Positions 43,641 to 63,109 of a DNA stretch of 64,000 nt are shown here, in pieces. Below the pieces are notes generated by a model. That model ran no database searches, was not told where the DNA came from, and saw only the letters and a program-made list of their open reading frames with translations. The DNA is taken from the NCBI GenBank assembly GCA_030612025.1, contig JAUWOR010000002.1, positions 117,464 to 181,463 on the forward strand, in the 5' to 3' direction. The translations under genes were made by a program, and so were the position numbers. Position 1 is the first letter of the stretch, and each line of letters opens with the position of its first letter. Origin of the DNA: Dehalococcoidia bacterium. GTDB lineage: Bacteria; Chloroflexota; Dehalococcoidia; GIF9; AB-539-J10.

Positions 43641-44201
43641 CTAGGCTTTGACCTGGTATTTAGCCTTCCCCTCTTCATAGAGGTCTCCACCATAAATATC
43701 GTTTATTACCGTAACAGGAAAGTCTTCTATCTCTAAGCGGCGGAGTGCCTCAGGTCCAAGTTCCTCATAAGCTACCACCTCTGCCTTCTTGATGCTCTTA
43801 GAAAGGAGAGCGCCGGCACCACCGATAGCAGCCATATACACCGCCTTATATTTCACCATGGCGTCTTTCACTGGCTTTGTGCGCATACCCTTGCCAATCA
43901 TCCCTTTTAGCCCCTCAGCTATCAACCTGGGAGAGTAACTATCCATGCGAATGCTGGTAGTGGGGCCAGCAGCGCCAATCGGCTTCCCTGGTCTGGCTGG
44001 AGAGGGACCCATAAAGAATATCGTCTGTCCCTTGAGATCTATGGGCAAAGGTTTCCCTTGATCCAAGGCCTCAATCATCCTCTTATGGGCGGCGTCACGG
44101 CCCTGATACATAACGCCAGTAAGCAAAAGATTGTCCCCCGCTCTGAGGTTTTTCAGGGTCTCCTCAGTTAATGGAAGTGTAATTTTTTTAACTTGAGCCA
44201 T
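43641..44201 (-). CDS. Fe-S hydro-lyase (fumarate/tartrate/mesaconate) beta subunit
   Basis: GRDAAHKR, GPTTSIRM, IGKG, GGAGA. Confidence 0.9.
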   Translation of the reverse strand: MAQVKKITLPLTEETLKNLRAGDNLLLTGVMYQGRDAAHKRMIEALDQGKPLPIDLKGQTIFFMGPSPARPGKPIGAAGPTTSIRMDSYSPRLIAEGLKGMIGKGMRTKPVKDAMVKYKAVYMAAIGGAGALLSKSIKKAEVVAYEELGPEALRRLEIEDFPVTVINDIYGGDLYEEGKAKYQVKA

Positions 44202-44226
44202 AATAAACCTCCTTATTCACTTTATT

Positions 44227-44309
44227 GTCATTGCGAGGCATGCCAATGCCGAAGCAATCTGGAGAACTGATTTTCCCACCGGGATTACTTCGCTTTGCTC
44301 GCAATGACG
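44227..44309. repeat. GTCATTGCGAG palindrome doublet
   Basis: GTCATTGCGAGG..GAAGCAATCT...GATTACTTCG..CTCGCAATGAC. Confidence 0.75.
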
Positions 44310-44317
44310 TAAGCAAT

Positions 44318-45499
44318 TCAAACTTTCAATCCTTTTAATATGTCTCGAGCAATGATATTCCTTTGAAGTTGCAAGGCAAATTCAGTAGAGCTCATTGCGA
44401 TAACATTACGGCAAAATCTTTCCATAGGCAGCCCGCCAACATATGCTGGGGCATTGAAAATATGAGCAGCATTATCGCAAACAAAATAGACCATTTGTGT
44501 GGCGAATAGTTTCACCATAGCCGCTAGGCGCTGTATCGGCTCTCCTTTATCTGCTCTCCAAGCAGCTTCATAAACCATTAATCTAGCAGCATGAATACTG
44601 GTGGCTATATCGCCAAGCGCTGCTTGTATACTGGTTCGCCCAGAAATAAACTGCCCAAACGCTGTCCACGTTTGAGCTTGCGTAGTACATTCATCGAGTA
44701 TTCTCTGAGCTGCTCCCACGCACCTAGCTCCCCTCACAATCCGCCTTGAAGGAAACCACTTCCTACCTAAATAGAAAGCCTTCCCCTCTTCACCTAACAT
44801 ATTCTCCGCCGCTACCTGACATTGGTCAAAAACCAAAGACATAGGCCTTCTCTCCCTCGCCTCCCATCCTGTCTCTTCCTCAGCACCACTCACGCTAAAT
44901 CCAGAAACACCTTTATCTACCAGAAAACAGCTCACTCCCTCTCTAAGTGGTTTCTCAGGATCAGTAACGGCAAAAACTACAGCAAAATAGTCCTTCGCAG
45001 CTCTAGGTTGGGAAAGAGACACTTTTTTACCATTGAGAACATAGCTGCCGTTTGCCTTTTCCACCCTCACCTCCATACCTTCAAAGCCCTCTCTTCCCGG
45101 CTCCATTAGTGCCAAGTAAGGATATTTTTGCCTGTTAAGCGCTGGCGAGAGGTATTTTTCCCTTTGCCTTGGGCTGCAATCAAAAAGTATCGGGGTAACA
45201 TCACCAAAACTGAAAGGGATAACCGTTTGAGCTAGCTCTTCTTCCACCAAGCAATTGCCCAAAATGTCCAAACCCACACCACCAAGCTCCTCAGGAGCAC
45301 TTACCCCCCATAAGCCCATTTCCTTCACCATTCCCATTAGCTCCTGCTCCTTCTCTAATGGGAGGTACATCTGGGCATCGCTTAGGTCAGCGGCTCGCCC
45401 CAAAACAATCCTTTCCAATGGTTTCAATTGGTCAGTGACAAAATCCCTCACCATACTTTGAATCATTTTTAATTCCTCAGGTATCTCAAAATCCATCAT
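44318..45499 (-). CDS. Acyl-CoA dehydrogenase family protein with degenerate motifs
   Basis: ACAD pattern (PEELGG, LNGKK, FGQ, AAMVKLFA, QRNIIAR); TEPxAGSD and GG motifs altered. Confidence 0.8.
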   Translation of the reverse strand: MMDFEIPEELKMIQSMVRDFVTDQLKPLERIVLGRAADLSDAQMYLPLEKEQELMGMVKEMGLWGVSAPEELGGVGLDILGNCLVEEELAQTVIPFSFGDVTPILFDCSPRQREKYLSPALNRQKYPYLALMEPGREGFEGMEVRVEKANGSYVLNGKKVSLSQPRAAKDYFAVVFAVTDPEKPLREGVSCFLVDKGVSGFSVSGAEEETGWEARERRPMSLVFDQCQVAAENMLGEEGKAFYLGRKWFPSRRIVRGARCVGAAQRILDECTTQAQTWTAFGQFISGRTSIQAALGDIATSIHAARLMVYEAAWRADKGEPIQRLAAMVKLFATQMVYFVCDNAAHIFNAPAYVGGLPMERFCRNVIAMSSTEFALQLQRNIIARDILKGLKV

Positions 45500-45555
45500 A
45501 CACCTCCAGTGAAATCACAAATCCCAATTGGAATTTGGTTATTGGTATTTGGGAT

Positions 45556-46005
45556 TTAATGTTCTATGGCTTCCTCGACAAATAAATCTAAATCAGGCTC
45601 ATCCTCGTCCCCTATCCTTTGCTCCAGCCGCGACATAACTTCTATCATACGGTGCTGAACAACGTAATTCTTGATAGTGGTATCCACTTGAGGGCAAGCT
45701 AAAACACAGGCATCACACTCATCGCAGTCTTCACCAACTATGCTTTCCAGCGCCATAGATGTTCGCTGCTCCGTCTTATTACGCCGAGACGGCTCACGGA
45801 ACAGAAAGGGACAGGCATCAATACAATTTCCACAGCCAAGGCATTCTTTATGCCCTCTGATATCCTCTGCTATATTTAAGGCATAAGACTCACCAAAACC
45901 GCTTGAAAGCAGCCGACACCGAGCTACTGGCGGGGAAGCAGTGCTCAAGATTTTATTTAAAACATCTTCAATTCCTTTGACTTCTCTTTGCTCACGCAGT
46001 GGCAT
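45556..46005 (-). CDS. 2x[4Fe-4S] dicluster protein
   Basis: CLGCGNCIDACP and CDECDACVLACP. Confidence 0.85.
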   Translation of the reverse strand: MPLREQREVKGIEDVLNKILSTASPPVARCRLLSSGFGESYALNIAEDIRGHKECLGCGNCIDACPFLFREPSRRNKTEQRTSMALESIVGEDCDECDACVLACPQVDTTIKNYVVQHRMIEVMSRLEQRIGDEDEPDLDLFVEEAIEH

Positions 46006-46017
46006 ATCATCCTCCTT

Positions 46018-47715
46018 CTAAATCCAGCGTACAGCTCTATCGCCAAAAGGCGTATACTCACTTGCCTCACCAAGCGGAACGAAACCAGGCACTGGTCGAT
46101 TACCACGGGCATAATTAGGTAAAAGCATAGGAGAGATGGGCATGTCTTCTAAACCTGCTTCCTTAATCTCACGCTGCCATTGGCGCACATGCTCTAAAGT
46201 AAGCTTGCCTAGCTTTACTTCCTTAACCCACTTAGCTGCCGCTCTGCCTGCCCTTCTGCCAAAGACAAATAAATCCAGAGTCGAATTACCAATAAGCCTA
46301 TTCCTGCCATGCACTCCACCCTCACATTCACCAGCGGCAAATAACCCTGGGACTGAGGTAGAGGCATCAGCCTTAATTTTGATTCCTCCGTTTTGATAAT
46401 GCAGCGTAGGGTAAACCAACATTGGCTTATGGATCATATCAATATCAAAGCGAGCAAACTGGCGAACCATTGCCGGCAGTTCCCTAGCAATAGTCCCTTC
46501 CCCGCGAATAATATCAACCATTGGTGAATCTTCCCACAGACCAACCTCCCCTGTTGGCGTTGTTACTCCCTTTCCGCGCTCTTTGCATTCTCGAATCTCT
46601 GCCGAGGCTTCCGTATCTCGTGCTTCCAAAGGATGGACAAACTGCTCTCCATCACAATTGACTAGCTCTGCCCCTAGAGTCCTCACCTTCTCTGTAATCA
46701 GTAACCCCAGAATTTGGGGAGGAAAGGCTGCGCCCGTGGGGTGATATTGCATAGTATCCATATGAACAAGAGGACAGCCTACCCGATAAGCCAATACTAA
46801 GCCATCGGCAGTGGCACCATAATGATTAGTTGTAGGGAAACCCTGAATATGCGTGCGGCCTACGCCACCAGTAGCCATAACTACCGCCCTGGCTCGCACT
46901 ATACTCATTTGCTTAGTCTCTAAGTTCATCAGTATAGCTCCAGCTACCTGCCCCTTATCATCCATGAGCAGCTCTATCACCGGCTCAAACTCTAACCAAT
47001 CTATCTTCCTGCCATGCATGTTCCTCTGCCTCATCTCATCACGTATAGTACGCATTTCTTCAAGGCCAGTATAATCTCGGCAGGAATGCATCCTCCTTAC
47101 AGCACAGCCACCACCCGATAGCTCATGATATGAACCATCTGGTTCCTTATCCCACTCAACACCCAGCGATTCCAGCCACCTAATAGCATCAGGAGCATCT
47201 TTGGCTAATGCTTCTGCCAAATCAGGATCATTGGTGAAATGGCCCCCGCCCATTATATCAAGGTAATGAATAGCAGGAGAGTCATTAGTCCTATCAGCTG
47301 CCTGTGTTCCTGCTTGAGCTCCTATAGTATTGGCATCTCCCAGGCGTAACTTTGATGATATTAAAACACTGGCACCGTTTTCCTCAGCTAAGAGAGCAGC
47401 TGCCCCTCCAGCTCCACCACAACCAATTACCAAAACATCAACATCATGGTCAATCTTGTCAAGCTCGATTTTATCAGGGTCAACGCGGCTGCTACCTTCC
47501 AACAGATCAGCCACCTCGTGAGGTGTGCGTTCACCCTTATTCGGTCCTACTTTTAACTCACGCATCTCTTCTTTTTTATAATCAGGATGAAATTTATTTA
47601 CTAGGGCTTCCCTTTCGGCTTCAGGAATACGAGGTAGAAGTCCTTTCTTCAACCGCTCTGCCCTAGTAGCCTCTACTTTTCTAATACTTTCTTCCATATA
47701 AGCTGGATATGGCAT
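46018..47715 (-). CDS. Soluble fumarate reductase/succinate dehydrogenase-like flavoprotein, paralog 2
   Basis: GCGGAG, QYHPT, LITEKVR, RD, HYQNGG, HGRNRL; no covalent-FAD His. Confidence 0.88.
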   Translation of the reverse strand: MPYPAYMEESIRKVEATRAERLKKGLLPRIPEAEREALVNKFHPDYKKEEMRELKVGPNKGERTPHEVADLLEGSSRVDPDKIELDKIDHDVDVLVIGCGGAGGAAALLAEENGASVLISSKLRLGDANTIGAQAGTQAADRTNDSPAIHYLDIMGGGHFTNDPDLAEALAKDAPDAIRWLESLGVEWDKEPDGSYHELSGGGCAVRRMHSCRDYTGLEEMRTIRDEMRQRNMHGRKIDWLEFEPVIELLMDDKGQVAGAILMNLETKQMSIVRARAVVMATGGVGRTHIQGFPTTNHYGATADGLVLAYRVGCPLVHMDTMQYHPTGAAFPPQILGLLITEKVRTLGAELVNCDGEQFVHPLEARDTEASAEIRECKERGKGVTTPTGEVGLWEDSPMVDIIRGEGTIARELPAMVRQFARFDIDMIHKPMLVYPTLHYQNGGIKIKADASTSVPGLFAAGECEGGVHGRNRLIGNSTLDLFVFGRRAGRAAAKWVKEVKLGKLTLEHVRQWQREIKEAGLEDMPISPMLLPNYARGNRPVPGFVPLGEASEYTPFGDRAVRWI

Positions 47716-47732: not shown

Positions 47733-48443
47733 CTATTTAGCCGGCTCTATCTCTCGCGCTGCATATCTCTTGCGTAACTCAGCCTCGCTTGCCTTCTTTA
47801 ATTCCTCTAACTCAACATCAAATTTGCCTTCCTCTATCTCCTTCACTCTATTCAAATTGTGCTGAGATTTAGGTGCCATATAATGGCCATATATGCGTCG
47901 AGACGCCAAAGCTACATTATATGGCTGCAATCCTTGTGGGCACCTGGCAGCACATAAGCCACATATGAGGCAATCAAATGATAGCTCAGCTACCCTCTTG
48001 ATATCACCCCTTATAGCAGCAGACATAAACTCCATAACCTCGAGGTCTTGAGGGCAGGTCTTAGTGCAATTATTGCAACCAAAACAGGTAAGGATATCGG
48101 GGTAAAGCTCCACTAGCTTGTTTTCCCCCTCTTTTGGCTCTAAATCCTCCACATTGTAAAGAGCTTCAGTGGCAGGGAAGAACGGTATCTGCGTTATAAC
48201 CATATTTTGCTCAATTTCTTTCTGGCAACCAAGGGCATATCTTATCGTGGGGTCATAGGTGAAGTTATAGATGGTGCCACAGGCACCACAAAATCCAGCA
48301 CGACAGCCACAACCTCTGATGATATGGTAACCGCAATACTCTAACGCTGTCTGGATGGTAAGCCCTTCAGGGACCTTATACCTCTTACCCATAACATAGA
48401 TGTCCAGCATTTGAACCTTTTCTTTTTCAGCAACTTCAGCCAT
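47733..48443 (-). CDS. Fe-S subunit ([2Fe-2S] + 2x[4Fe-4S]), paralog 2
   Basis: GCRAGFCGAC..C; two CxxCxxCxxxCP. Confidence 0.88.
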   Translation of the reverse strand: MAEVAEKEKVQMLDIYVMGKRYKVPEGLTIQTALEYCGYHIIRGCGCRAGFCGACGTIYNFTYDPTIRYALGCQKEIEQNMVITQIPFFPATEALYNVEDLEPKEGENKLVELYPDILTCFGCNNCTKTCPQDLEVMEFMSAAIRGDIKRVAELSFDCLICGLCAARCPQGLQPYNVALASRRIYGHYMAPKSQHNLNRVKEIEEGKFDVELEELKKASEAELRKRYAAREIEPAK

Positions 48444-48469: not shown

Positions 48470-50137
48470 TTAAGCCAATTTCACCAAGCCAGGCTGTAAT
48501 TTTTCAGTATAGAGATCGGCCAAGTAATCGCTTGGCTGTCTGGCATAATTTGGTAATAACATTGGTGAAAATGGCCTTTCCTTCACTATACCAAGCTGTT
48601 CAAGCTCATTCTGCCACTGGCGCACATGGTTTAAAGTAAGCTTACCTAGCTTTACCTCCTTGGCATACCGCGTTGCCTCTCTACCTGCTCTCCTGCCAAA
48701 GACATATATATCCAGTGTTGCATTGCCTCCAAGTCTATTCCGGCCATGCACTCCACCACCAACCTCGCCTGGAACCCATAGTCCTGGCACTTCTGTAGCT
48801 GAGTTAGCATCCATCTTGACTCCCCCATTTTGGTAATGTAGTGTAGGATAAACCAACACTGGCTCATGAATTAGATCGATATTGAAACGGCTAAACTTAT
48901 GAACTAAACTAGGTAACCTCCGCGCAATGGTGCCTTCTCCGTGTATCATATCAATTAGTGGTATATCTTCCCAAACGCCAACGTTCCCTGCCGGCGTTGT
49001 TATTCCTTTGTGCTGCTCGGTACACTCTCGAATCTCAAATGAAGCTAGTATATCTCGTGGCTCTAAATTGCAGGCAACTTGCTCTCCATCAATATTGATT
49101 ATCTGTCCCCCCAAAGCCCTTACGTTCTCTGTAATCAGTATTCCTACAAACTGCAAAGGATAAACTGCGCCTGTGGGATGATACTGTATACTATCCCCGT
49201 AGATGAGTGAACAACCTACCCGATAAGCCATCGCCAACCCATCAGCAGTAGCCCCATAATGATTAGTGGTGGGAAAGCCTTGAGTGTGCAATCTTCCCAA
49301 GCCACCAGTAGCCACAATTACCGCTTTGGCTCGCACCAGGCTTAATTCATTTGTCTCTAAGTTCACCAATATTGCTCCGGCTACTTGTCCCTCATCATCC
49401 ATTATCAATTCTATTGCCGGCTCAAATTCTATGTAGTCTATGTTATCTCTACATCTAACCTCATCACGCAGAACCCTCATTACCTCAAGGCCGGTGTAAT
49501 CTTTGCAAGAATGGACCCGCCTTCTACACTCCCCGGCAAGCTCCAATTCACGCATGGAACCATCTGTCTCTTTATCCCAATTAACACCCAAATCTTCTAA
49601 CCACTTAATTGCCATAGGAGCATCTCTTGCCATTGCCCATACCAATTCAGGCACATTTTCGAAGTGCCCTCCACCCATGGTATCTAAATAGTGAAGGACA
49701 GGGGAATCGTTTGGTCTATCAGCCGCTTGCGTTCCTCCCTCAGCTCCTATAGTGTTAGAATCGCCCAACCTTAGCTTCGTTGCTATTAGAACCTTAGCAC
49801 CATTTTCCTGAGCTAGAAGAGCTGCTGATAATCCAGCACCTCCAGAACCAATTATTAAAACATCGACATCGTAGCCAATCTTACTCAGGTCAACCTTATC
49901 AGGGTCAACTCGGCTGTTTCCTTCCAATTGATTCGCTAGCTCCTCGGGCATCGTTTCGTCTTTGTTTGGCCCTAAAAGTAGTTTACGCTTACCCGTTTCC
50001 CTATAGTCAGGGTGATATTTACGCACTATAATATCCCTCTCATCGCTACTAATGAGGGGAATTTCTTCCTTCATCCGCCTTTGCCTGCTAGCCTCTAATT
50101 TTCTAATGCTTTCTTCCATATAGGGAGGATATGGCAT
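48470..50137 (-). CDS. Soluble fumarate reductase/succinate dehydrogenase-like flavoprotein, paralog 1
   Basis: GSGGAG, QYHPT, LITENVR, RD, HYQNGG, HGRNRLGGN; start MPYPPY. Confidence 0.88.
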   Translation of the reverse strand: MPYPPYMEESIRKLEASRQRRMKEEIPLISSDERDIIVRKYHPDYRETGKRKLLLGPNKDETMPEELANQLEGNSRVDPDKVDLSKIGYDVDVLIIGSGGAGLSAALLAQENGAKVLIATKLRLGDSNTIGAEGGTQAADRPNDSPVLHYLDTMGGGHFENVPELVWAMARDAPMAIKWLEDLGVNWDKETDGSMRELELAGECRRRVHSCKDYTGLEVMRVLRDEVRCRDNIDYIEFEPAIELIMDDEGQVAGAILVNLETNELSLVRAKAVIVATGGLGRLHTQGFPTTNHYGATADGLAMAYRVGCSLIYGDSIQYHPTGAVYPLQFVGILITENVRALGGQIINIDGEQVACNLEPRDILASFEIRECTEQHKGITTPAGNVGVWEDIPLIDMIHGEGTIARRLPSLVHKFSRFNIDLIHEPVLVYPTLHYQNGGVKMDANSATEVPGLWVPGEVGGGVHGRNRLGGNATLDIYVFGRRAGREATRYAKEVKLGKLTLNHVRQWQNELEQLGIVKERPFSPMLLPNYARQPSDYLADLYTEKLQPGLVKLA

Positions 50138-50158
50138 ATCAAACACCTCTTTCCTACA

Positions 50159-50860
50159 TTATTTAGGCTCTATCCACCTTTCATCATATATGTGGCGTAA
50201 CTCTTCCATAGGCGTACTTCTCAATTTTTCATATTCAGCATCATACTTGCCTTCCTCTATCTCCTTTACCTTTTCCTCTAAGTGCTTGGACTTGGGTAGA
50301 AGATAGCGACCATGCAACCTCCGAATGAGCATAGCTATGTTATAGGGTGACAAACCCTGGGGACACCTAGCAGCACACATGCCACACATTACACATTCAA
50401 AAGACTCCGCAGTAACGGCAGGGAAGTCGCCTCTTAAAGCAGCGGACATAAAATCCATGACCTCAATATCCTGGGGACAAGACTGAGTGCAATTATTACA
50501 GCCAAAGCAAGTAGCCAAATCAGGGTAAATTCCTAATACCTGATCCACAGTGGGCCTCAACTTCTTTATATCGTAAATAGGCTTGGCAGTAGGAAAACAT
50601 GGAATTTGCACTACACACATATCCGGCTCAACAGCTGTCTGGCAAGCAAGCCCATACCTTAACGTAGGGTCATGCGTAAAATTGTATACCGTAGCACAAG
50701 CACCACAACTTCCCCCACGACACCCACAGCCACGAATCAATCTATAACCACAATACTCTAGTGCCGTCTGGATAGTAAGCCCTTCAGGAACCTTATAATT
50801 CTTCTCCATAATGTAGATATCGAGCATTCGAACCTTTTCGGCAACCTCAGCTTCAGCCAT
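50159..50860 (-). CDS. Fe-S subunit, paralog 1
   Basis: GCRGGSCGAC..C; two CxxCxxCxxxCP. Confidence 0.88.
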   Translation of the reverse strand: MAEAEVAEKVRMLDIYIMEKNYKVPEGLTIQTALEYCGYRLIRGCGCRGGSCGACATVYNFTHDPTLRYGLACQTAVEPDMCVVQIPCFPTAKPIYDIKKLRPTVDQVLGIYPDLATCFGCNNCTQSCPQDIEVMDFMSAALRGDFPAVTAESFECVMCGMCAARCPQGLSPYNIAMLIRRLHGRYLLPKSKHLEEKVKEIEEGKYDAEYEKLRSTPMEELRHIYDERWIEPK

Positions 50861-50871
50861 TTTCACCCCGT

Positions 50872-55269: not shown

Positions 55270-55358
55270 TTAATTTTGCCTCATTCGGATTTTCGTAGTG
55301 CGACCCTTTAGGGTCGTGCACGAGGCTAAAGCCTCGCACTACATTACTTAAACACCCC
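55270..55358. mobile_element. Short variant of the TIR element, type A cargo
   Basis: Same shell as 53270-53361 with a different REP; supplies the ferredoxin stop codon. Confidence 0.7.
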
Positions 55359-55664: not shown

Positions 55665-56915
55665 CTAAGCTCTGCGATACTCTGCCACCAGCTCTTTCAT
55701 CCGCTCAGCTACATAATCAACATTATAGACATAGTCACGCCCATAGACCTCTACTCCGGCAGGAAGTCCTTTTAATTCCTCCCTAAGGATTTCTAAGGAT
55801 TCTGCCTCCTTATTTCCCGCGATTAAAAGTATTGCCGGGAAGTTTGGCCTGTTTGCCAGCTCTTCCCTCAAAGCCCTAACTAAGGCATGAGCATGATGCC
55901 ACTGCTCCTGGTTGGCAATGCAAGCCCCCATTAATATATAGCCATCAATATTAGGTTGGGAAAAAATAAGCTTGACCACACGATACACCTTAGATGCTGT
56001 GGGATTCCCGCTAGTGTCAGCATAATCTGCCAGTTTGAGTCCATGACGTATTAAGGCATCAGCTCCAAGCATAGCTGCACCACCACCAATCCCATGGAAA
56101 CCAATATACCCTTCTCCTGGCCCGAAATCTTTAGCCATCTGAACGAAGTAACCTACACCACGGTAATCTTCTTCCTCTACCTTCCAGGCAAGTTGCTCCA
56201 GTTCCGTGGGCGCCCGACCAATATCACGGGGATACTCTATCTCAAGCTCTGGGTGCTTAAATACCGAAGCCTCGTCCACTACTATGCGACAATCGGCGGG
56301 GAAAATTCCCCCATCCTGGGTCAAAACCAAGGGGTTGATTTCAGCACTTCGAGCGCTATATTTTTTAAATACCTGGTACAACCCGTAAACCACTTGGCTC
56401 AGTGGCTCTACTAACGACGGTGAAACATCGAGCTTTGAGATTAAGTCCCTGGTATCCTCACTGGTTAATCCCTCGAGGACATCAACGTTCATACTGACTA
56501 CTTTTTTCGGGAATTTAGCCGCCACTTCCTCGATATCAACGCCACCTTGAGTGCTAAACATTAAAACCGGCCCCTTAACTTTGTAAGAATCGTTTACTAT
56601 CACGCCGGCGTAAAATTCCTTTTCAATAGGTAATTTTTCCTCCACTAAAACCTTTTCCACTCTAAGCCCTTTGATCTCCTTACCTAGTAGCTCTCGGGCA
56701 ACTTTCTCCGCCTCACTAGCATTGTCAGCAAACTTTATCCCCCCAGCTTTGAAGCGCCCCGTAGCGCCAACCTGCGCCTTAATCACCACTGTTTTTGCCA
56801 ACTTTGCTGCTATTCTGCGTGCTTCGGCCGGCGTGGAGGCAACATCGCCTTGGGGGACAGGTATGCCAAGTTGTTTTAATAACCTTTTTCCTTGATATTC
56901 ATAAAGTTTTGGCAT
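55665..56915 (-). CDS. ADP-forming CoA ligase beta subunit (ATP-grasp; citryl-CoA synthetase/ACL-like C-terminal domain)
   Basis: MPKLYEYQGK, EINPL, GGGAAM, DTSGNPT, IANQEQW. Confidence 0.85.
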   Translation of the reverse strand: MPKLYEYQGKRLLKQLGIPVPQGDVASTPAEARRIAAKLAKTVVIKAQVGATGRFKAGGIKFADNASEAEKVARELLGKEIKGLRVEKVLVEEKLPIEKEFYAGVIVNDSYKVKGPVLMFSTQGGVDIEEVAAKFPKKVVSMNVDVLEGLTSEDTRDLISKLDVSPSLVEPLSQVVYGLYQVFKKYSARSAEINPLVLTQDGGIFPADCRIVVDEASVFKHPELEIEYPRDIGRAPTELEQLAWKVEEEDYRGVGYFVQMAKDFGPGEGYIGFHGIGGGAAMLGADALIRHGLKLADYADTSGNPTASKVYRVVKLIFSQPNIDGYILMGACIANQEQWHHAHALVRALREELANRPNFPAILLIAGNKEAESLEILREELKGLPAGVEVYGRDYVYNVDYVAERMKELVAEYRRA

Positions 56916-56936: not shown

Positions 56937-57033
56937 GTAGTGCGACCCTTTAGGGTCGTGCACGAGGCTACCCTGCGTAGTAATCTTCGCTACTACACAG
57001 GGCTAAAGCCTCGCACTACATTTTTAAACTCTC
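56937..57033. repeat. Type A REP with a nested 35-bp hairpin insert
   Basis: Near-identical insert at 16200-16234; GGCTA duplicated either side. Confidence 0.75.
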
Positions 57034-58386
57034 CATAACCTCCTTGATATTTTTCACTTTCTGCAAGTTAGTAAGAATAGATAGAGATTTCTCCACATCT
57101 TCCTTAGATAGCATGGTAGAGGCACAATCCTGGTATTTGGAATTAAACTCATCAGGGGTTAATGGATTCAGCGGCATTCCTTTAGCGATAGCCACTTCTT
57201 TAGAGAATTCCTTGCCATTCTTCAGCTTAACGGTAATGCTCTTGGTGCCAAATCCTTCTGTTGTTCCCATAACTGACATGGGATACTTCTCCACCCATTT
57301 CATCTTCTCTATCAGGCTCTTTATGGGTGGCTCAGCCACCGCCTCATCGGTTAAATGCTTCAAGCGAACTTCGCCTGAAAGAAGAGCTCGGGCAACACAG
57401 TATTCCAGGCTAAACTTACCCTCCAAGTCTGTTCTGGGGTGATGATGAATGAGAATCTGCTTGTCAAAGGGGCTAACGCCCAACTCTACTTCAGCTATAT
57501 TAGCCGCATTCACCTTATGCTCTTTTTTGATACCAAGAGCAGCATCTATGGCACAATGGGTAAACCCGCAACAGGGATAAGGCTTGATGGAAAGCCCTAT
57601 GTCACTGGTGATAAAAAATGTTTTTCCCAGATTCTCGCCTGCCTTGGCCCAATCCACCTCCCCACTATGACCAAATACCTTAGCAAAACCCAGAGGGGCT
57701 TCAATTATACCCTCGTCAGCCGTAAACCCCGCCTGGGCTAAAAGAGCTGCCTGAATGCCGTTAGCCGCTGCTTTACCAGCATGTAACGGCTTGGTCATGG
57801 TGCCAAAGTTCTGCCTTAAACCTCCAGCCAGGGAGGCGGCGATCCCCAGAGCCATCCTCACCTGGGCATGGTCAAGCTTTAACAGCCTGGCTACCGCTGC
57901 CATTGCCCCCAGACTCCCAAAGGTAGCTGTGCTGTGCCACCCTTGCACATAATGGCTCTGCAGCACAGGCCCAGCGATACAACAAGCCGTCTCATAACCA
58001 ACAACATAGGCAATCAGGACATCCTCACCTGAAGCCTCTATGCTCTCTCCGATAGCTAAGATCGCTGGAGCAAGAAATACCGATGGGTGTCCGATAAGAG
58101 AAATTGCCATATCATCGTAATCCAGGGCATGCCCCGTCGTCCCATTAACCAGGGCCGCTAAATATGGCGATGTTTTGCCATCTCTACCAATGAGGCTCGC
58201 TTGGGGCACACCACCAATCTTTTGGGCATAATCGGCTATTATCTTGCTCTGCTTTTCTCTTGACCCAGGAAGGGCAACGCCAATGAAATCAGTGATAGCC
58301 AAACGAGCCAAATCAAGAGCATCTTGGGGAATATCTTTAGCTGCCGTCTGGGCGACAAAATGACTGACCTTATCAGTGATACCCAT
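57016..58386 (-). CDS. MmgE/PrpD family protein
   Basis: HALDYDD, GHPS, GWHST, KPLHAG, KPYPCC, KFS. Confidence 0.92.
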   Translation of the reverse strand: MGITDKVSHFVAQTAAKDIPQDALDLARLAITDFIGVALPGSREKQSKIIADYAQKIGGVPQASLIGRDGKTSPYLAALVNGTTGHALDYDDMAISLIGHPSVFLAPAILAIGESIEASGEDVLIAYVVGYETACCIAGPVLQSHYVQGWHSTATFGSLGAMAAVARLLKLDHAQVRMALGIAASLAGGLRQNFGTMTKPLHAGKAAANGIQAALLAQAGFTADEGIIEAPLGFAKVFGHSGEVDWAKAGENLGKTFFITSDIGLSIKPYPCCGFTHCAIDAALGIKKEHKVNAANIAEVELGVSPFDKQILIHHHPRTDLEGKFSLEYCVARALLSGEVRLKHLTDEAVAEPPIKSLIEKMKWVEKYPMSVMGTTEGFGTKSITVKLKNGKEFSKEVAIAKGMPLNPLTPDEFNSKYQDCASTMLSKEDVEKSLSILTNLQKVKNIKEVMESLKM

Positions 58387-58466: not shown

Positions 58467-59171
58467 TTAAATCCCAAGATAAGCCTCTTCGATATGCTTA
58501 TCATGGAGCAACTTCTCACCCTTGCCTTGAAGGGTAATGCGGCCAATTTCCAGAACATAAGCCCGGGTGCAGGCCTTTAAAGCATGGGCCACATTTTGCT
58601 CTACCAGTAAAATAGTGATGCCTTCGCGATTAATCCGCTCAATAACTTTGAACTCTTCATCTACCAGAAATGGTGCCAGCCCCAGAGAAGGCTCATCCAA
58701 CATCATCAGCTTAGGGCACGCCATTATCCCTCTACCTACAGCTAGCATCTGCGCCTCACCACCAGAAAGCGTCCCGGCTGCCTGCCAGGCTCTCTCTTTC
58801 AATATGGGGAAAATAGTGAACACCCGCTCCATAGATTCCTCTCGTCTCGCCTTTGCCTCTGGCATCAGGGAGCCCATGAGCAAATTCTCCTTAACCGTCA
58901 TTTCAGGAAACAGCTTTCTCGCTTCAGGGACATGAGCAATGCCTAAACTAGCCATCTTATGAGCTGGTAGTTTGGTGAGCTCTTGCCCCAGAAATTCGAT
59001 ATTCCCTTTTCTCGGGCGCAACAGTCCCGAGATAGCATTCAAGGTAGTGGTCTTGCCGGCACCATTGGAGCCCAGCAAGGCCACGATTTCCCCTTCCTTT
59101 ACCTCAAAGGAGATATCCCATAATGCCTGCACATCTCCATAATAAACATCGATATTATTTACCTTTAACAT
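58467..59171 (-). CDS. livF: HAAT-family ABC transporter ATPase
   Basis: GSNGAGKT, LSGGE, DEPSLGLAP, VEQN. Confidence 0.9.
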   Translation of the reverse strand: MLKVNNIDVYYGDVQALWDISFEVKEGEIVALLGSNGAGKTTTLNAISGLLRPRKGNIEFLGQELTKLPAHKMASLGIAHVPEARKLFPEMTVKENLLMGSLMPEAKARREESMERVFTIFPILKERAWQAAGTLSGGEAQMLAVGRGIMACPKLMMLDEPSLGLAPFLVDEEFKVIERINREGITILLVEQNVAHALKACTRAYVLEIGRITLQGKGEKLLHDKHIEEAYLGI

Positions 59172-59883
59172 ATTCCTCCCCCAGATAAGCTTTAATCACT
59201 TCAGGATGCCTGGACATCTCCTTTGGCGTCCCTCGGGCTATCTCCGCACCAAAATTGATACACATCACTCTATCCGAAATGCCCATGAGAAACTTCATCA
59301 CATGCTCTACCACGAAGCAAGTTATCCCACTATCTCGAATCTTCTTCACGATTGCCATGGCTACCTCTATCTCCTTAAGATTTAGCCCGGCCGCGGTCTC
59401 ATCGAGTAGTATTAACTCAGGGTCTCCAGCCAAACTACGGGCTATCTCCATCCTTTTCTTATCGGCGATAGGCAAATCCTTGGCTGGCATATCTTTCCGA
59501 GGCATAAGCTCACAAAAATCTACAACCTCCAAAGCTTTGTCCCTAGCTTTGGTAGTGCTGATCGTCCGCAAGAAGGCTCCCGCCATGACATTCTCCAAGA
59601 CTGTCATGCGCCTCAGCGGCTTAACCACCTGAAAGGTCCTGCCAATACCTAGCCGGCAAATCTTGTGAGTGGACATGCGAGTGATTGGTATCCCTTTGAA
59701 AATAATCTCCCCGCTATTTGCCGGATAGTAATTATTTATGGTATTGAACAGGGTGGTCTTGCCCGAGCCATTGGGACCAATGAGGCCAAAAATCTCTCCT
59801 TGCTCTATGCCCACAGTTATATCATTGACGGCCACCAAACCACCAAATTTCCTTACTACATGTTTAATATCCAAATAGGCCAT
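59155..59883 (-). CDS. livG: HAAT-family ABC transporter ATPase
   Basis: FGGLVAV, GPNGSGKT, RTFQ, VEH, AYLG. Confidence 0.9.
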   Translation of the reverse strand: MAYLDIKHVVRKFGGLVAVNDITVGIEQGEIFGLIGPNGSGKTTLFNTINNYYPANSGEIIFKGIPITRMSTHKICRLGIGRTFQVVKPLRRMTVLENVMAGAFLRTISTTKARDKALEVVDFCELMPRKDMPAKDLPIADKKRMEIARSLAGDPELILLDETAAGLNLKEIEVAMAIVKKIRDSGITCFVVEHVMKFLMGISDRVMCINFGAEIARGTPKEMSRHPEVIKAYLGEEYVKGK

Positions 59884-59885
59884 TT

Positions 59886-60848
59886 TTATTCACCTCCGAC
59901 ATATACTGGTTTTTTACCACGGAAGAGGCGCTTTATCTTATCCCCCTCACCGGCAATTCCGTTGGGAAGAAACATGATTACCAAAACTAAAATTAAGGCG
60001 AATATCAAATAGTGTATCGTTCCTATCACCGGCCCGGCGAAGGCGCGCAGCAACTCGCTAAGGAGGACAAAGATGGTTGCCCCGAGAGCCGGCCCCCAGA
60101 AGGTACCAGGCCCTCCCAGCATTACCGACAGTATCATCGTTGCTGATATTATTAAAGGAAATACCGTGTTAGGCTCAATAAAGGCCATATAATTCATGTA
60201 AAACGCTCCCGCCAGCCCGATAATGCCGGCACAGGGAATAAGAGCATACATCTTATATTTAGTGCTGGGAATCCCCAGACCTTCAGCAGCATCTTGGTCT
60301 TCTCTGATGGAGACAAAGTAATAGCCAAACTTGGACTTCATCAGGCGATAAACAACATAAAGGCTCAAGGCCGCTATTGCCAGGACCATGTAATAATAGG
60401 GCAATTTCTCCATACCCCAGGTGCGCTCAATTACTATGCCCAGTGGTCCAGCACCCATTTCCACCCAGTTAAGGAATACTATCCGTATTGTCTCGCATAC
60501 CGCCAACATAGACAGGACAAAATAGCCACCACGCAGACGGAAAGTAACCAGCCCGATAGGAATGGCCACCACGATGGCCAAAAGGGGTCCACCTATCATC
60601 CCCCACCAGGGTGATATACCCCAGTGAAGATAAAGCATCCCGGCTCCATAGGCTCCTAAGCCAAAGAAGGCAGCACTCCCTAGGGATGCTTGCCCGCAAT
60701 ATCCCCCAAGCAGGTTCCAGCCCGTGGCCATGGCTATCCACATCATTACCAGGATGAGTATATGCTGAAAATAACCGCCTAAAAAGGGGGGAAGGGCTAT
60801 AGCCACTATCCCCAAGATTGCCGGTAAAAACCAACTCTTTTTTGCCAT
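59886..60848 (-). CDS. livM: HAAT-family ABC permease
   Basis: WNLLGGYCGQ, IREDQDAAEGLGI, PNGI. Confidence 0.88.
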   Translation of the reverse strand: MAKKSWFLPAILGIVAIALPPFLGGYFQHILILVMMWIAMATGWNLLGGYCGQASLGSAAFFGLGAYGAGMLYLHWGISPWWGMIGGPLLAIVVAIPIGLVTFRLRGGYFVLSMLAVCETIRIVFLNWVEMGAGPLGIVIERTWGMEKLPYYYMVLAIAALSLYVVYRLMKSKFGYYFVSIREDQDAAEGLGIPSTKYKMYALIPCAGIIGLAGAFYMNYMAFIEPNTVFPLIISATMILSVMLGGPGTFWGPALGATIFVLLSELLRAFAGPVIGTIHYLIFALILVLVIMFLPNGIAGEGDKIKRLFRGKKPVYVGGE

Positions 60849-60852
60849 TATG

Positions 60853-61728
60853 TCACCTCTTAATTACTGTTTTGAGCCCGCCAGGCATGAACAAGAGGAC
60901 AAGAAGAAAGATGACGAAGCCCACAACATCCTTATATCCCGGGGCCCAATAAACAGCACCCAGGGATTCCGCCATGCCAAAAACCAAGCCACCGGAAAGA
61001 GCCCCCACAGTGCTCCCGGCACCTCCGAGAATGGTGATGATAAGAGCTTTAATGGTAAAAGGAGTGCCAATATCGGGAAAGAGATAAAATATGGGCAGAA
61101 GCAAAGCCCCCCCGGCAGCAGCCAGAGCCATGCCCAAGCCAAAGGTAAGACTGGAGACGCGCAGGGCATCGATCCCCATATATTTTGCCGCATCCAGGTC
61201 CTGAGCGGTCGCCCGAATTGAGCGGCCAAAATCAGTCCTGGTAAGCAGGATATGGAGACCAGCAACAAAAGCCATAGCAATGCCAAAACTAACTAACTGG
61301 GGAAGGCTGATCGACATATCACCAATGTAAAGGCACTTGGAAGAAAACGGCGTATAGACAGAGCGGAAGTCAGATTTAAAGATAACTCTGATGATCTCAA
61401 CAAAAACAAGACCAATGGCCAGAGTTAACAGCACCTGAGTCTGGGGTAGAATGGTATCAACGAAGCGAACACGCTGGATAGAGTATCTCTGCAGCAAATA
61501 ACCAATACCAAAGAGGCAGGGCATACCCACAAACATAGCGATATAAGGGTGAAGCCCGAGGGATGTGAACAGAGCAAAGCAAACATACATGCCCACCATC
61601 ATTAAGTGCCCGTGGCCAATGTTGATAATTTTCATCACCCCCAGTATCAAGGTCATGCCAATGGCAATGACGGCATAAACGCCTCCCATCAAGAAGCCAC
61701 AAATAATTGTCTGACCAAATAAAGCCAT
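60853..61728 (-). CDS. livH: HAAT-family ABC permease
   Basis: GMTLILGVMKIINIGHG, GRSIRATAQD. Confidence 0.88.
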   Translation of the reverse strand: MALFGQTIICGFLMGGVYAVIAIGMTLILGVMKIINIGHGHLMMVGMYVCFALFTSLGLHPYIAMFVGMPCLFGIGYLLQRYSIQRVRFVDTILPQTQVLLTLAIGLVFVEIIRVIFKSDFRSVYTPFSSKCLYIGDMSISLPQLVSFGIAMAFVAGLHILLTRTDFGRSIRATAQDLDAAKYMGIDALRVSSLTFGLGMALAAAGGALLLPIFYLFPDIGTPFTIKALIITILGGAGSTVGALSGGLVFGMAESLGAVYWAPGYKDVVGFVIFLLVLLFMPGGLKTVIKR

Positions 61729-61750
61729 ATTAATTTACCACCTTTTGAAG

Positions 61751-61776
61751 AGTAGGGGGGTTAAAACCCCCCTACT
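61751..61776. other. Intercistronic stem-loop after the binding-protein gene
   Basis: AGTAGGGGGG-TTAAAA-CCCCCCTACT-type hairpin; typical mRNA stabiliser. Confidence 0.6.
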
Positions 61777-61780
61777 TTCA

Positions 61781-63109
61781 TTACCTTTCTTCCCACTTAG
61801 GAGCGGGAAAGATGTAATCAGCTGAGGCTGCCTCTACAGGCCAGACAACCTCTTGTACCAGGTTTTGCCACTGCATGACGTAGGTTAAGGGCAAGCCCTG
61901 GTTGGTGTAGCAGTGTCCCATATCGTCGCACCAATCTTTATGCTCTATGAGACCCATGGCTGTCATTAGATTGGTCTCCGTGAGGGCCTCTCGGATGGTC
62001 TCCCGGTTAATGATCTCCCCGGCGGCGTCAATCCTCAATAGGGCATCCAGACATATCATCCATTGAGCAAAACCCTGGGCTCCATGGTAATCAGGGTCGG
62101 CACCATAGGACCCTAGATAGCCCTCGAAATATTCTTGATTAGTCCACTTCACACCAGCCAGCTCGCCTTCCCAGGTAGCCAATGGACTCCAGTTTGCCGT
62201 AGTGAGTACATAATTAGCATTCTCACCAGCATTGACCACGAACTCAGGCATGGTATAGCCTCCCGCCTGACCCATAAAACACAGAACATCGAGCCTTAGC
62301 TCCCCCACCTGTCTGGCGATCAGCGAGGCATCCATAAGGTAGGAAACGGCCATAATCATGTCCGGTTTTTTCGCCTTTACCGCCGCCAGCATAGGCTTAT
62401 GGTCTATGGCATCAGAGTCATATGGTTTGTCATAGACAAGCTCAATACCTCTATCCTCAAAGTTAACGCGCAGAGCCTCTGCCGAGCTAGTGCCCCAGTC
62501 ACTCATCTCATAAAACAGGGCTACCTTCGACACCCCTCCTGGTATGAGCACTCCGTCGACAAAACTCCACATGGCGTCGGCGTAGTGAGATGCCGGCACT
62601 CTAGCACCGGAGAATACCCATTCCCAACCTTCCATGGTGATGGCATCTTTGGAGCTATTGCAGATAAGGAAAGGAACCTTGAGGTCGTTAGCCGCCGCAG
62701 CCTGAACCACACCAACAGAACTGGTATAACCTCCCAGCACTATATCAACCTCGTCCAAGATAGCCAACTTCTCAAAAGCAGATTTGCCCGTTGCCGGGTC
62801 TCCTCGGTTATCCTCGATTACAAACCTGATTGGCCTGCCACCTACTTCCTCAACTCCAAACTTAGCATATGCCATCTGGATTGATAGCCAGTCCATCGTC
62901 CCGAAGTTGGCTTTGGCTCCCGTCAGTGGGAAGTTAATGCCAATCTTGATGGAACCTGTAGGAACCTCTTCCTCTTCCTCTTCCTCCTCTTCCTCCTCTT
63001 CCTCCTCTTCTTCTGGTGGCGCGACTTCTGGCGCACAGCCAGGTAAAGCAAATGCCGCTACTAACACCACAACCAACCCCAAAAGCAATCCCAACTTAAC
63101 TTTCTTCAT
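61781..63109 (-). CDS. ABC substrate-binding lipoprotein (LivJ/K-like) with poly-Glu linker
   Basis: Lipobox LPGC, 16 Glu, IKIG..PLTG, GGYTSS. Confidence 0.9.
   Translation of the reverse strand: MKKVKLGLLLGLVVVLVAAFALPGCAPEVAPPEEEEEEEEEEEEEEEEVPTGSIKIGINFPLTGAKANFGTMDWLSIQMAYAKFGVEEVGGRPIRFVIEDNRGDPATGKSAFEKLAILDEVDIVLGGYTSSVGVVQAAAANDLKVPFLICNSSKDAITMEGWEWVFSGARVPASHYADAMWSFVDGVLIPGGVSKVALFYEMSDWGTSSAEALRVNFEDRGIELVYDKPYDSDAIDHKPMLAAVKAKKPDMIMAVSYLMDASLIARQVGELRLDVLCFMGQAGGYTMPEFVVNAGENANYVLTTANWSPLATWEGELAGVKWTNQEYFEGYLGSYGADPDYHGAQGFAQWMICLDALLRIDAAGEIINRETIREALTETNLMTAMGLIEHKDWCDDMGHCYTNQGLPLTYVMQWQNLVQEVVWPVEAASADYIFPAPKWEER

Follow-up and report, generated by a model that had tools for sequence, protein, structure and literature searches.

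A 19-gene cluster of a Dehalococcoidia bacterium with a Cys-rich-protein-associated CoA ligase, a CitE-type lyase and a possible role in branched C5 dicarboxylate catabolism

We analyzed a 64,000-nucleotide stretch of contig JAUWOR010000002.1 from a Dehalococcoidia bacterium (assembly GCA_030612025.1, positions 117,464 to 181,463 of the forward strand; hereafter the window), in which 19 co-oriented minus-strand open reading frames (ORFs), separated by short gaps, run from 63109 to 43641. They encode a Liv-type ABC importer, an MmgE/PrpD-family protein, a CoA ligase with a Cys-rich small protein, a CitE-type lyase, malic enzyme, a class I fumarase, two fumarate-reductase-like enzymes, a ferredoxin and an acyl-CoA dehydrogenase (ACAD). 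The reading that we put forward, possible though somewhat short of probable, is that this cluster serves to break down a branched C5 dicarboxylate (methylsuccinate, mesaconate or itaconate) anaerobically, with citramalyl-CoA as an intermediate. Support for its components, namely binding of the Fe-S protein to the ligase, a separate clade of lyase and ligase, the residue patterns of the epimerase and reductases, and conservation of the gene set, is computational throughout. What is new is the split of the ligase/lyase family into two clades of which one is PrpD-linked, the presence of both clades in one genome and the conserved 19-gene arrangement; thiokinase-plus-lyase cleavage and C5 dicarboxylate catabolism are already known as kinds of system.

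The layout given by the first-pass annotation of this DNA, 19 co-oriented genes converging on a canonical sucC-sucD pair, agrees with the ORF list and with the sucC-sucD scores (41492..43548, plus strand; NCBI equivalog scores of 513.5 vs 370 and 445.3 vs 336), and the domains are as it named them. Pfam assigns a family to 18/19 cluster genes, the exception being a 99-aa gene between the ligase subunits. The cluster ligase, lyase, PrpD-family protein, flavoproteins and ACAD all fall under every NCBIfam equivalog cut-off.

A three-part ligase and its partner lyase

Four neighboring genes, referred to below as the module, encode the ligase and the lyase:

55665..56915, minus strand: ligase beta subunit (LigB), SucC/CcsA-like, 416 aa (PF08442 and PF16114); a longer GTG frame reaches 56963
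55348..55647, minus strand: Cys-rich ferredoxin-like protein of 99 aa, probable third ligase subunit (position, Cys conservation, complex model)
54337..55239, minus strand: ligase alpha subunit (LigA), SucD-like (PF02629 and PF00549)
53380..54333, minus strand: CitE-type acyl-CoA lyase, clade Ia by tree (PF03328, 173.4 bits)

The start of LigB most likely lies at 56915, as in its relatives. The first-pass annotation considered another substrate likely for this second ligase, and that the ligase is not a copy of succinyl-CoA synthetase is borne out by 34% (LigB) and 44% (LigA) identity to the window's SucC and SucD, by scores under the succinyl-CoA synthetase equivalog cut-offs (240.7 vs 370 and 297.7 vs 336, respectively) and by membership of a separate family with a Cys-rich subunit. 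LigB also scores far under the malate-CoA ligase beta equivalog (156.5 bits, cut-off 604). It has a Pfam Citrate_bind match (37.5 bits, cut-off 26.8), and the large subunit of citryl-CoA synthetase (6HXQ_B, 39.5 bits) is the nearest relative of its C-terminal domain. The A-N-N-T and R-R-N-G of 6HXQ_B, and the A-N-F-T of the ATP-citrate lyase (ACL) beta chain 6HXJ_A, are replaced throughout the LigB family by A-N-Q-E and L-I-A-G-N, with A-N-Q-E invariant across all clades; the Thr and Arg residues are reportedly described as citrate-binding in the structure paper on human ACLY. In LigA, the S254-H255-A256-S257 loop is invariant in 28/28 aligned sequences and probably corresponds to the G-H-A-G phosphohistidine loop. 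Relatives of LigB are numerous (4403 proteins at E <= 0.001 among 8000 candidates scored), and the 120 best share 74-100% identity with it.

The first-pass annotation had noted the ferredoxin gene between the ligase subunits and left it unexplained. Gene order, invariant cysteines and a complex model now indicate that the 99-aa protein is probably a conserved, bound third subunit of the ligase. Neither Pfam nor NCBIfam gives a match for it, and its Cys motifs are C-x2-C-x4-C-x3-C and C-x2-C-x2-C-x3-C. Cys20, Cys28, Cys66 and Cys70 are invariant in 116/116 sequences and Cys32 is present in 108/116, the other cysteines being clade-dependent; one full four-Cys site and one three-Cys site are likely from this pattern. 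Its gene sits between those for LigB and LigA in 75/80 genome loci, and no fusion of the Fe-S protein to a ligase subunit (>180 aa) was found among the loci examined. A three-chain model places the 99-aa protein on the C-terminal domain of LigB with a complex score of 0.85, the best of three controls reaching 0.00; contacts agree between runs at >=95%, and the partner's pLDDT is at least 87. The mark used for this score was reached by 58/80 solved complexes and 2/110 mismatched pairs, a calibration that applies only roughly here, with custom alignments and three chains. The modeled LigB contacts (306-321 and 339-347 in the 416-aa numbering) flank the invariant DTSGNP and ANQEQWHH loops, and the modeled interface of the small protein is its second Cys motif (residues 59-68). 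The three-Cys cluster would thus come to lie beside LigB loops homologous to the acid-binding loops of ACL, where a LigB histidine may complete it or where it may itself contact the 2-hydroxy acid in the manner of the aconitase and class I fumarase clusters. A literature search, with supplementary files outside its range, turned up neither an Fe-S ligase/CitE module nor a citramalate thiokinase, and no anaerobic C5 dicarboxylate pathway either.

The CitE-type lyase scores 249.5 bits against the citrate-lyase beta model and 160.5 bits against the RipC/Ccl citramalyl-CoA lyase model (cut-off 375), and is under both cut-offs. Its residues R65, E128 and D155 lie within the family-wide conserved motifs VRVN, (L)IE and GAxD.

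Two clades of the module and conservation of the gene set

Genome loci were drawn from one-genome-per-species contigs, on which 314 stretches held a LigB relative and the best 80 were kept; a further 64 metagenome loci with CitE were found. In 66/80 genome loci a span of 4 kb holds the genes for LigB, the Cys-rich protein, LigA and CitE in this sequence. All four genes are present in 63/67 loci with room downstream, the remaining four lacking CitE only. The module is spread over Dehalococcoidia, Desulfobacterota, Myxococcota-type metagenome-assembled genomes (MAGs) and archaea (Bathyarchaeia, Nitrososphaeria, Heimdallarchaeota, Thermoplasmata), and the related loci closest to the window's module are from Dehalococcoidales. 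A FastTree phylogeny of CitE (124 rows) separates clade I (81 rows) from clade II (43 rows) with SH-like support of 100 for each, clade I comprising Ia (36 rows, among them that of the window) and Ib (45 rows). Neighboring genes differ between the clades as listed below; many loci are short, so that the counts are lower bounds, and the search queries for the loci were LigB and CitE of the window itself, so that the sampling is biased.

PrpD-family protein: Ia 15/36, Ib 35/45, II 1/43 (clade I together 50/81)
GlcD-type dehydrogenase: Ia 0/36, Ib 0/45, II 30/43
DctP (TRAP transporter): Ia 0/36, Ib 0/45, II 18/43
Pyruvate:ferredoxin oxidoreductase (PFOR): Ia 0/36, Ib 0/45, II 13/43
FccA-like flavoprotein: Ia 0/36, Ib 15/45, II 0/43
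Cyclic amidohydrolase: Ia 0/36, Ib 18/45, II 0/43

Flavoproteins of the window's type, fumarase, ACAD and malic enzyme are nearly confined to Ia loci. The host genome carries both clades, with the clade I copy in the window and a clade II copy on another contig (C1), and the two modules share 53% (LigB), 41% (Fe-S protein), 61% (LigA) and 41% (CitE) identity. At the clade II locus (C1:33000-52900, L081), genes for EtfB, EtfA, a GlcD-like protein, a LarA-like racemase, TRAP DctPQM and a DUF1893 protein precede the module and another GlcD-like gene follows it; the upstream part resembles what we take to be the lactate-utilization set of acetogens.

Strictly clade-specific positions number six in LigB and five in LigA (none within the invariant loops) and 17 in CitE. 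Immediately ahead of the invariant ANQEQW, the LigB sequence is M-G-A/P for clade I and A/S/G-G-F for clade II, and CitE has G154 and G161 in clade I where clade II has V and R. Relative to both clade II and E. coli CitE, clade I CitE carries insertions of three and one residues, the three-residue insertion lying beside the conserved GAxD. The median identity to E. coli CitE is 39.2% for clade Ia and 33.3% for clade II. Because these residues and insertions differ, the substrates of clade I would be expected to differ from those of clade II and are probably larger.

A recurrent cluster surrounds the module in clade Ib loci (L023, L030, L053, L126-L161), in the order GntR/UTRA regulator, PrpD-family gene, module, second PrpD-family gene, FccA-like flavoprotein of 467 aa, third PrpD-family gene, hydantoinase/dihydroorotase-like amidohydrolase and Liv-type ABC system. 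It may serve the breakdown of a substituted succinate in cyclic-amide form.

The gene set, on whose conservation the first-pass annotation had made its proposal depend, was found in other loci. One (L103) has 18/19 genes in the same order at 70-97% identity, its contig stopping before the binding-protein gene; L105 has all genes from LigA through fumarase beta, and L104 has the set with one reductase pair only. Two rearranged loci (L112, L114) combine malic enzyme or malate dehydrogenase (MDH), fumarase alpha, a PrpD-family gene, the module, Fe-S protein, flavoprotein, ferredoxin and ACAD, and in L119 the Fe-S protein, flavoprotein, ferredoxin and ACAD genes stand immediately ahead of the module. 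That block of four recurs in five loci (L103, L104, L105, L112 and L119). Malic enzyme directly follows CitE in the window and in L103-L105, and in L112 and L114 the module again has MDH or Ldh2, fumarase and sucCD for neighbors. In a distant phylum, a Desulfobacterota-type MAG (L022) has both fumarase subunits, a reductase resembling TfrAB, a PrpD-family gene and a Liv-type ABC system grouped with the module. Most relatives carry only one reductase pair, and the twin is therefore lineage-specific. A flavoprotein of the window's type directly follows CitE in L005, L007 and L122, and does so with an Fe-S partner in L108; no fumarase gene was detected on those stretches.

Other clade Ia loci add further enzymes. 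In L107 (positions 1009-12457) the module and both fumarase subunit genes (alpha and beta) are joined by a PrpF-family isomerase, a PrpD-family protein, a flavoprotein and a TRAP DctQM fusion, which hints at isomerization of an unsaturated acid ahead of the module; an OYE-type enoate reductase and a VOC protein are found in L119 and a dihydroorotate dehydrogenase (DHODH)-like reductase in L005. The PrpF-family isomerase, the enoate reductase and the DHODH-like reductase are enzymes that act on unsaturated or branched acids.

A candidate route to citramalyl-CoA and its rivals

The remaining genes of the cluster, apart from the importer, are as follows:

57016..58386, minus strand: MmgE/PrpD-family protein, epimerase type (Pfam; iminodisuccinate (IDS) epimerase as closest solved relative)
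51905..53257, minus strand: malic enzyme, 450 aa, sole copy in the genome (PF00390 and PF03949; single tblastn match)
50872..51717, minus strand: class I fumarate hydratase alpha, single copy (NF004885, 399.5 bits vs cut-off 276)
50159..50866, minus strand: SdhB/TfrB-N-like Fe-S protein 1, 2Fe-2S and 4Fe-4S dicluster (Pfam)
48470..50146, minus strand: fumarate-reductase-like flavoprotein 1, non-covalent flavin adenine dinucleotide (FAD) type, with a 90-aa N-terminal extension (PF00890, 219.8 bits)
47733..48443, minus strand: Fe-S protein 2 (Pfam; 59% identity to Fe-S protein 1)
46018..47715, minus strand: fumarate-reductase-like flavoprotein 2 (FAD_binding_2; 65% identity to flavoprotein 1)
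45556..46005, minus strand: 4Fe-4S dicluster ferredoxin, 149 aa (PF13237 and others)
44318..45499, minus strand: ACAD with the catalytic Glu in place (Pfam; alignment to 1UKW)
43641..44201, minus strand: class I fumarate hydratase beta, single copy (NF005310, 267.3 bits vs cut-off 238)

The MmgE/PrpD-family protein had been called PrpD and taken for a dehydratase, a designation that we abandon in favor of an epimerase type. True PrpD (2-methylcitrate dehydratase) models give at best 50.2 bits against cut-offs of 458-950. Its solved relatives are, in order, IDS epimerase (227.7 bits), the B. subtilis 'IRG1' and the cis-aconitate decarboxylases, and no PrpD structure is among them at E <= 1e-5. 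We compared a residue set taken from the accessible part of PMC12290011 (the catalytic His and Tyr and five carboxylate-binding residues), and all seven catalytic and binding residues of IDS epimerase are kept, including the second base, Tyr: by alignment, H86/D89/H100/Y146/H151/K199/K268 correspond to H85/D88/H99/Y145/H150/K198/K266 of 2HP3. The same residue set occurs in the MmgE/PrpD protein of the Pseudomonas/Cupriavidus itaconate cluster, to which the first-pass annotation had pointed for Pseudomonas and for whose protein Gonner et al. 2025 (PMC12290011, accessible part) showed an (S)-(R)-methylsuccinate isomerase function. A plasmid search for methylsuccinate isomerase matched 366 records, and the one inspected, an unannotated Paraburkholderia record, held only PrpD paralogues and an ABC ATPase. 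Protein Atlas queries with the PrpD-family protein and flavoprotein 1 returned nothing beyond family names.

Of the 'twin soluble reductases' named from the sequence at first, two are indeed present, and the description can be refined: both lack the covalent-FAD histidine and keep the fumarate-site residues. Relative to E. coli FrdA, Asn replaces that His in both flavoproteins, and QYHPT, RD, HYxxGG and GxNRL are kept; in FrdA numbering we take the substrate site to be H232, R287, H355 and R390 and the covalent-FAD residue to be H44. All 13 of 13 flavoproteins of the window's type have this Asn and retain the fumarate-site motifs. Non-covalent FAD is typical of soluble reductases. The scores against the TfrA and TfrB equivalogs are low (311.7 bits, cut-off 718, and 30.6 vs 385, respectively), and the CCG domain is absent. 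According to the accessible part of a preprint, PF00890 flavin reductases convert itaconate to 2-methylsuccinate (bioRxiv 10.1101/2022.12.26.521950). The 'hydro-lyase' of the first-pass annotation also stands, as a canonical class I fumarase whose subunit genes are split and lie 6.7 kb apart. The host genome has two ACAD-family genes, the second being on contig C10 in a corrinoid methyltransferase cluster. That cluster (L170) comprises a Liv-type ABC system, an Fe-dependent alcohol dehydrogenase (Fe-ADH), the ACAD-family protein, a corrinoid protein and a non-Pyl MtmB-family methyltransferase beside a transposase pair, and may serve quaternary-amine demethylation.

In the route that we tentatively propose, the Liv-type ABC system would import a 2-substituted succinate and the MmgE/PrpD protein would interconvert its enantiomers. 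The acid would be converted to (S)-citramalate, with the class I fumarase acting as a mesaconase on the free acid, and the ACAD and/or the fumarate-reductase-like flavoproteins would handle the saturated/unsaturated pair. The thiokinase, made up of LigB, the Fe-S subunit and LigA with its phosphohistidine, would form the CoA thioester at the cost of one ATP, and the CitE-type lyase would cleave it to acetyl-CoA and pyruvate. The electrons of the dehydrogenation would be taken up by an internal sink made of the flavoprotein/Fe-S pairs, the 149-aa ferredoxin, malic enzyme and fumarase, either from pyruvate through malate and fumarate to succinate or by direct reduction of mesaconate or itaconate. 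A route from methylsuccinate or mesaconate to citramalyl-CoA was one of two alternatives in the first-pass annotation; it uses most of the genes and has gained the epimerase-type PrpD protein and a related characterized cluster. In that cluster the ACAD is a methylsuccinyl-C4-CoA dehydrogenase, and class I fumarase acts as mesaconase in the same itaconate/methylsuccinate scheme (both PMC12290011, accessible part). A methylaspartate route to mesaconate was ruled out, neither Met_asp_mut_E nor MAAL_C having a match in the host genome.

Several observations weigh against this route. The best solved relative of the binding protein is the SAR11_0655 L-pyroglutamate-binding protein (8WCH, 88.4 bits), whose ligand is not a dicarboxylate, and the non-covalent FAD of the flavoproteins speaks against methylsuccinate oxidation by them. 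No enoyl-CoA hydratase for mesaconyl-CoA was found (no ECH_1 match in a genome 95.6% complete), which would leave a Pseudomonas-like CoA-ester route incomplete; the genome's only MaoC protein lies in a fatty-acid-synthesis cluster, and family III CoA-transferase (PF02515) has no match in the genome. The ACAD is without a clean place in a free-acid route, and the redox balance of the proposed sink requires extra reductant. Fumarase, malic enzyme and sucCD, each present in a single copy, must also serve central metabolism, and part of the clustering may therefore be housekeeping. The lyase scores higher with the citrate-lyase beta model than with the citramalyl-CoA lyase model, and its loops, compared with five solved lyases and E. 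coli CitE, do not separate malyl-, citramalyl- and citryl-type enzymes, showing only derived insertions in clade I. Clades I and II do not differ in the acid-contacting LigB loops DTSGNP and ANQEQW and may therefore bind one and the same acid. In the class as a whole, 119/301 genomes have a match to the PrpD-family protein (a tally that includes the unpublished genome G244), and in 20 regions from other class genomes with the closest relatives (43-50% identity) the module was not seen beside them, except for weak SucCD-type and CitE matches in L101.

The identity of the loops bears directly on an assignment in which clade I handles malate or malyl-CoA like clade II and the cluster serves to ferment a C4 acid or a mixture of D and L forms (D-/L-malate, fumarate or an aspartate-like acid). 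The epimerase would then supply the usable enantiomer, malic enzyme the oxidative branch, and fumarase with the two reductases the branch to succinate, the ligase and CitE linking malate with acetyl-CoA and glyoxylate. DTSGNP and ANQEQW are invariant in all clades, every fumarate-site motif is kept in the flavoproteins, and malic enzyme, MDH/Ldh2, fumarase and sucCD recur close to the module as described above. The epimerase, moreover, requires a C2-H, which malate has and citramalate lacks, and an anaerobic malyl-CoA pathway is biochemically defined (PMC8092247, accessible part). We nevertheless consider this assignment unlikely, as the genome already has a clade II module that differs from the window's by active-site-side changes and indels as well as in overall LigB and CitE identity, a source or sink of glyoxylate was not seen in clade I loci (GlcD in 0/81), the malate-CoA ligase model is far from its cut-off and the ACAD is left without a role.

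Quite improbable, in our view, is that the ligase and CitE form a two-enzyme ATP-citrate lyase acting on citrate, either imported or derived from aconitate or tricarballylate, with oxaloacetate decarboxylated by malic enzyme or reduced to succinate by way of malate and fumarate, on the pattern of citrate fermentation by enterobacteria. The Citrate_bind match and the kinship with 6HXQ_B point in this direction, as do the closeness of the lyase to the citrate-lyase beta model and of clade Ia, more than clade II, to E. coli CitE. E. coli ferments citrate with a lyase, MDH/malic enzyme, class I fumarase and fumarate reductase, a set that the cluster parallels; a PrpF-family (aconitate-isomerase-type) gene is present in L107, and the genome (1.40 Mb in 19 contigs, 95.6% complete, 43-47% G+C per contig) has no match to citrate synthase PF00285. 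Against these stand the LigB motifs A-N-Q-E and L-I-A-G-N, which replace the reportedly citrate-binding Thr and Arg-Arg of CcsA and the Thr of ACL, the distance of the epimerase-type MmgE/PrpD protein from the 2-methylcitrate/citrate dehydratases, and an ACAD and an epimerase left without roles; the only aconitase-family gene of the genome is LeuC-like (455 aa) and adjoins a LeuB-like gene. The other alternative of the first-pass annotation, citrate/aconitate fermentation or a reductive TCA step, is weakened by the same three findings on the ligase, the PrpD protein and aconitase.

The cluster could also be a mosaic, in which housekeeping reductive TCA genes (Ldh2/MDH, malic enzyme, fumarase, soluble fumarate reductase, sucCD and a 2-oxoacid:ferredoxin oxidoreductase 6 kb away) stand beside a separate unit of ABC importer, epimerase, ligase and CitE acting on a 2-substituted succinate such as an N-substituted aspartate. 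The 1.4-Mb genome, which lacks citrate synthase, has one copy each of fumarase, malic enzyme and sucCD, a fused 2-oxoacid:ferredoxin oxidoreductase lies at 33583-35904, and an N-substituted aspartate is the substrate of the epimerase's nearest solved relative. In clade Ib the module has other partners, among them the FccA-like flavoprotein (15/45), the cyclic amidohydrolase (18/45) and several PrpD paralogues. This too we hold to be unlikely. Despite rearrangement, the module of L104, L112, L114 and L119 remains associated with the Fe-S/flavoprotein pair, ferredoxin, ACAD, fumarase and malic enzyme, the distant L022 unites the module with fumarase, TfrAB-like reductase, PrpD-family and Liv-type ABC genes, and the flavoprotein directly follows CitE also in L005, L007, L122 and, with its Fe-S partner, L108, stretches on which no fumarase gene was detected.

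For the C5 dicarboxylate route, a stronger form can be stated, of which we are rather doubtful: a fermentative, O2-independent route for methylsuccinate, itaconate or mesaconate, the first of its kind, through a citramalate thiokinase with its own Fe-S subunit, with electrons passing from the ACAD to a dedicated ferredoxin and on to the non-covalent-FAD fumarate-reductase-like enzymes, bypassing electron-transfer flavoprotein (ETF) and quinone. The accessible part of PMC12290011 (2025) describes bacteria fermenting itaconate as not yet known. If true, the proposal would supply genes for the anaerobic breakdown of itaconate-type acids and a first substrate class for the PrpD-linked half of a widespread, unnamed thiokinase/lyase family of Dehalococcoidia, Desulfobacterota and several archaeal phyla. 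An Fe-S subunit on a ligase of the succinyl-CoA synthetase (SCS) type is unexpected for this enzyme class, and the two clades in one genome make a natural pair for working out specificity. The current annotation as succinyl-CoA synthetase and citrate lyase beta misleads TCA and reverse TCA reconstructions in uncultured anaerobes.

The importer genes and the other features of the cluster and its flank are listed here:

61781..63109, minus strand: Liv-type (Peripla_BP_6) substrate-binding lipoprotein (PF13458, 122.6 bits; signal peptide with an LPGC lipobox)
61749..61778, no strand assigned: 13-bp G+C-rich perfect hairpin in the 52-nt gap between the binding-protein and first permease genes (pattern match only)
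60853..61728, minus strand: ABC permease, LivH-like (PF02653, 135 bits)
59886..60848, minus strand: ABC permease, LivM-like (PF02653, 116.1 bits)
59155..59883, minus strand: ABC ATPase, LivG-like (PF00005 and PF12399)
58467..59171, minus strand: ABC ATPase, LivF-like (PF00005, 112.8 bits)
40127..41152, minus strand: Ldh2-family malate/sulfolactate-type dehydrogenase, as context (NCBIfam)

The hairpin may be an intra-operon attenuator or an RNA-stability element. A homologue of the Ldh2-family dehydrogenase also stands at the head of the rearranged L112 cluster. Operon boundaries were not revealed by promoter-like sites (24 vs 28.5 +/- 5.3 in shuffles) or by terminator-like sites (21 vs 18.3 +/- 4.1). 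In the intergenic region upstream of the cluster (window 63495-63672), the 14-nt motif CTGTCATTCTGAGC occurs three times and an 18-nt motif twice. Elsewhere in the window, 32455-38146 holds a 2,4-diaminopentanoate-dehydrogenase-like gene, the fused 2-oxoacid:ferredoxin oxidoreductase (773 aa, with a 178-aa ORF) and a PALP enzyme, and may be an amino-acid fermentation unit separate from the cluster. An Rfam 'pan' motif lies at 12156-12240 (46.1 bits, gathering score 36.2). A complete 23S rRNA gene with an adjoining tRNA is found at 3535-6513 and no 16S rRNA gene in the window, which suggests an unlinked rRNA arrangement in the host.

Comparison with known systems

The closest parallel to the proposed route is the itaconate cluster of Pseudomonas aeruginosa and Cupriavidus necator (Ict, Ich, Ccl, Mcd, Msi; PMC12290011, accessible part), with which the window's cluster has in common an MmgE/PrpD protein with the His/Tyr two-base set, an ACAD and a CitE-type lyase, there yielding acetyl-CoA and pyruvate. 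Class I fumarase as mesaconase belongs to that scheme as well, and a VOC-family gene is found in the related locus L119. Where the Pseudomonas/Cupriavidus cluster has a family III CoA-transferase, the window has what is probably an ADP-forming three-subunit Fe-S thiokinase and the genome no PF02515; the MaoC-type itaconyl/mesaconyl-CoA hydratase is absent here, and the window's lyase is well under the RipC/Ccl equivalog of Pseudomonas-type itaconate degradation (160.5 vs 375). The window's cluster adds two soluble fumarate-reductase-like enzymes and a ferredoxin, and its host is a strict anaerobe outside Pseudomonadota. Methylsuccinate isomerase genes always adjoin the methylsuccinyl-CoA dehydrogenase gene, according to the accessible part of the same paper, unlike the ACAD gene here, which lies in the same cluster 11.5 kb from the MmgE/PrpD gene.

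The two-step logic, an SCS-type thiokinase followed by release of acetyl-CoA and a 2-oxoacid, is that of citryl-CoA synthetase with its lyase (CcsAB/Ccl of Hydrogenobacter thermophilus, 6HXQ) and of ATP-citrate lyase, and the C-terminal domain of LigB, with its Citrate_bind match, is nearest to CcsA. The partner lyase of CcsAB has the citrate-synthase fold, whereas that of the window has the HpcH/CitE fold; the window's ligase further differs in its probable third, Cys-rich subunit and in A-N-Q-E and L-I-A-G-N in place of A-N-x-T and R-R. Succinyl-CoA synthetase has two subunits and no metal cluster, unlike the window's ligase with its Cys-rich gene (75/80 loci; model score 0.85 vs 0.00).

An SCS-type ligase adjoining a CitE-superfamily lyase is also found in MtkAB/Mcl and in the anaerobic malyl-CoA pathway of glycolate/glyoxylate oxidation (Syntrophobotulus glycolicus and Moorella sp. 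HUC22-1, cited in PMC8092247, accessible part). It is the sister clade II that adjoins GlcD-type dehydrogenases, TRAP transporters and PFOR, whereas the window's copy belongs to clade I, beside GlcD in 0/81 loci, and scores 156.5 vs 604 as a malate-CoA ligase. The long insertion that follows the conserved GAxD (metal-Asp) loop in the Mcl structures 5UGR and 4L9Y is absent from the window's CitE.

With TfrAB and the soluble PF00890 reductases (for example the itaconate reductase IrdA), the window's reductases share the fumarate-site His/Arg set, the lack of a membrane anchor, an SdhB-like Fe-S partner and non-covalent FAD. They differ in score (TfrA, 311.7 vs 718), in an Fe-S subunit without the CCG/HdrD-like domain and in a flavoprotein with the 90-aa N-terminal extension, without Succ_DH_flav_C and paired with a separate ferredoxin and ACAD. 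Clostridial glutamate fermentation converts mesaconate to (S)-citramalate and on to pyruvate and an acetyl unit, by way of a mesaconase and an acyl carrier protein (ACP)-type citramalate lyase. The anaerobic passage from mesaconate to (S)-citramalate, pyruvate and an acetyl unit, with an Fe-S hydro-lyase of the class I fumarase family, would be common to both. Glutamate mutase E and methylaspartase were not found in the window's genome. The clostridial pathway uses an ACP-bound lyase complex, whereas the route proposed here would cleave a CoA thioester made by the thiokinase.

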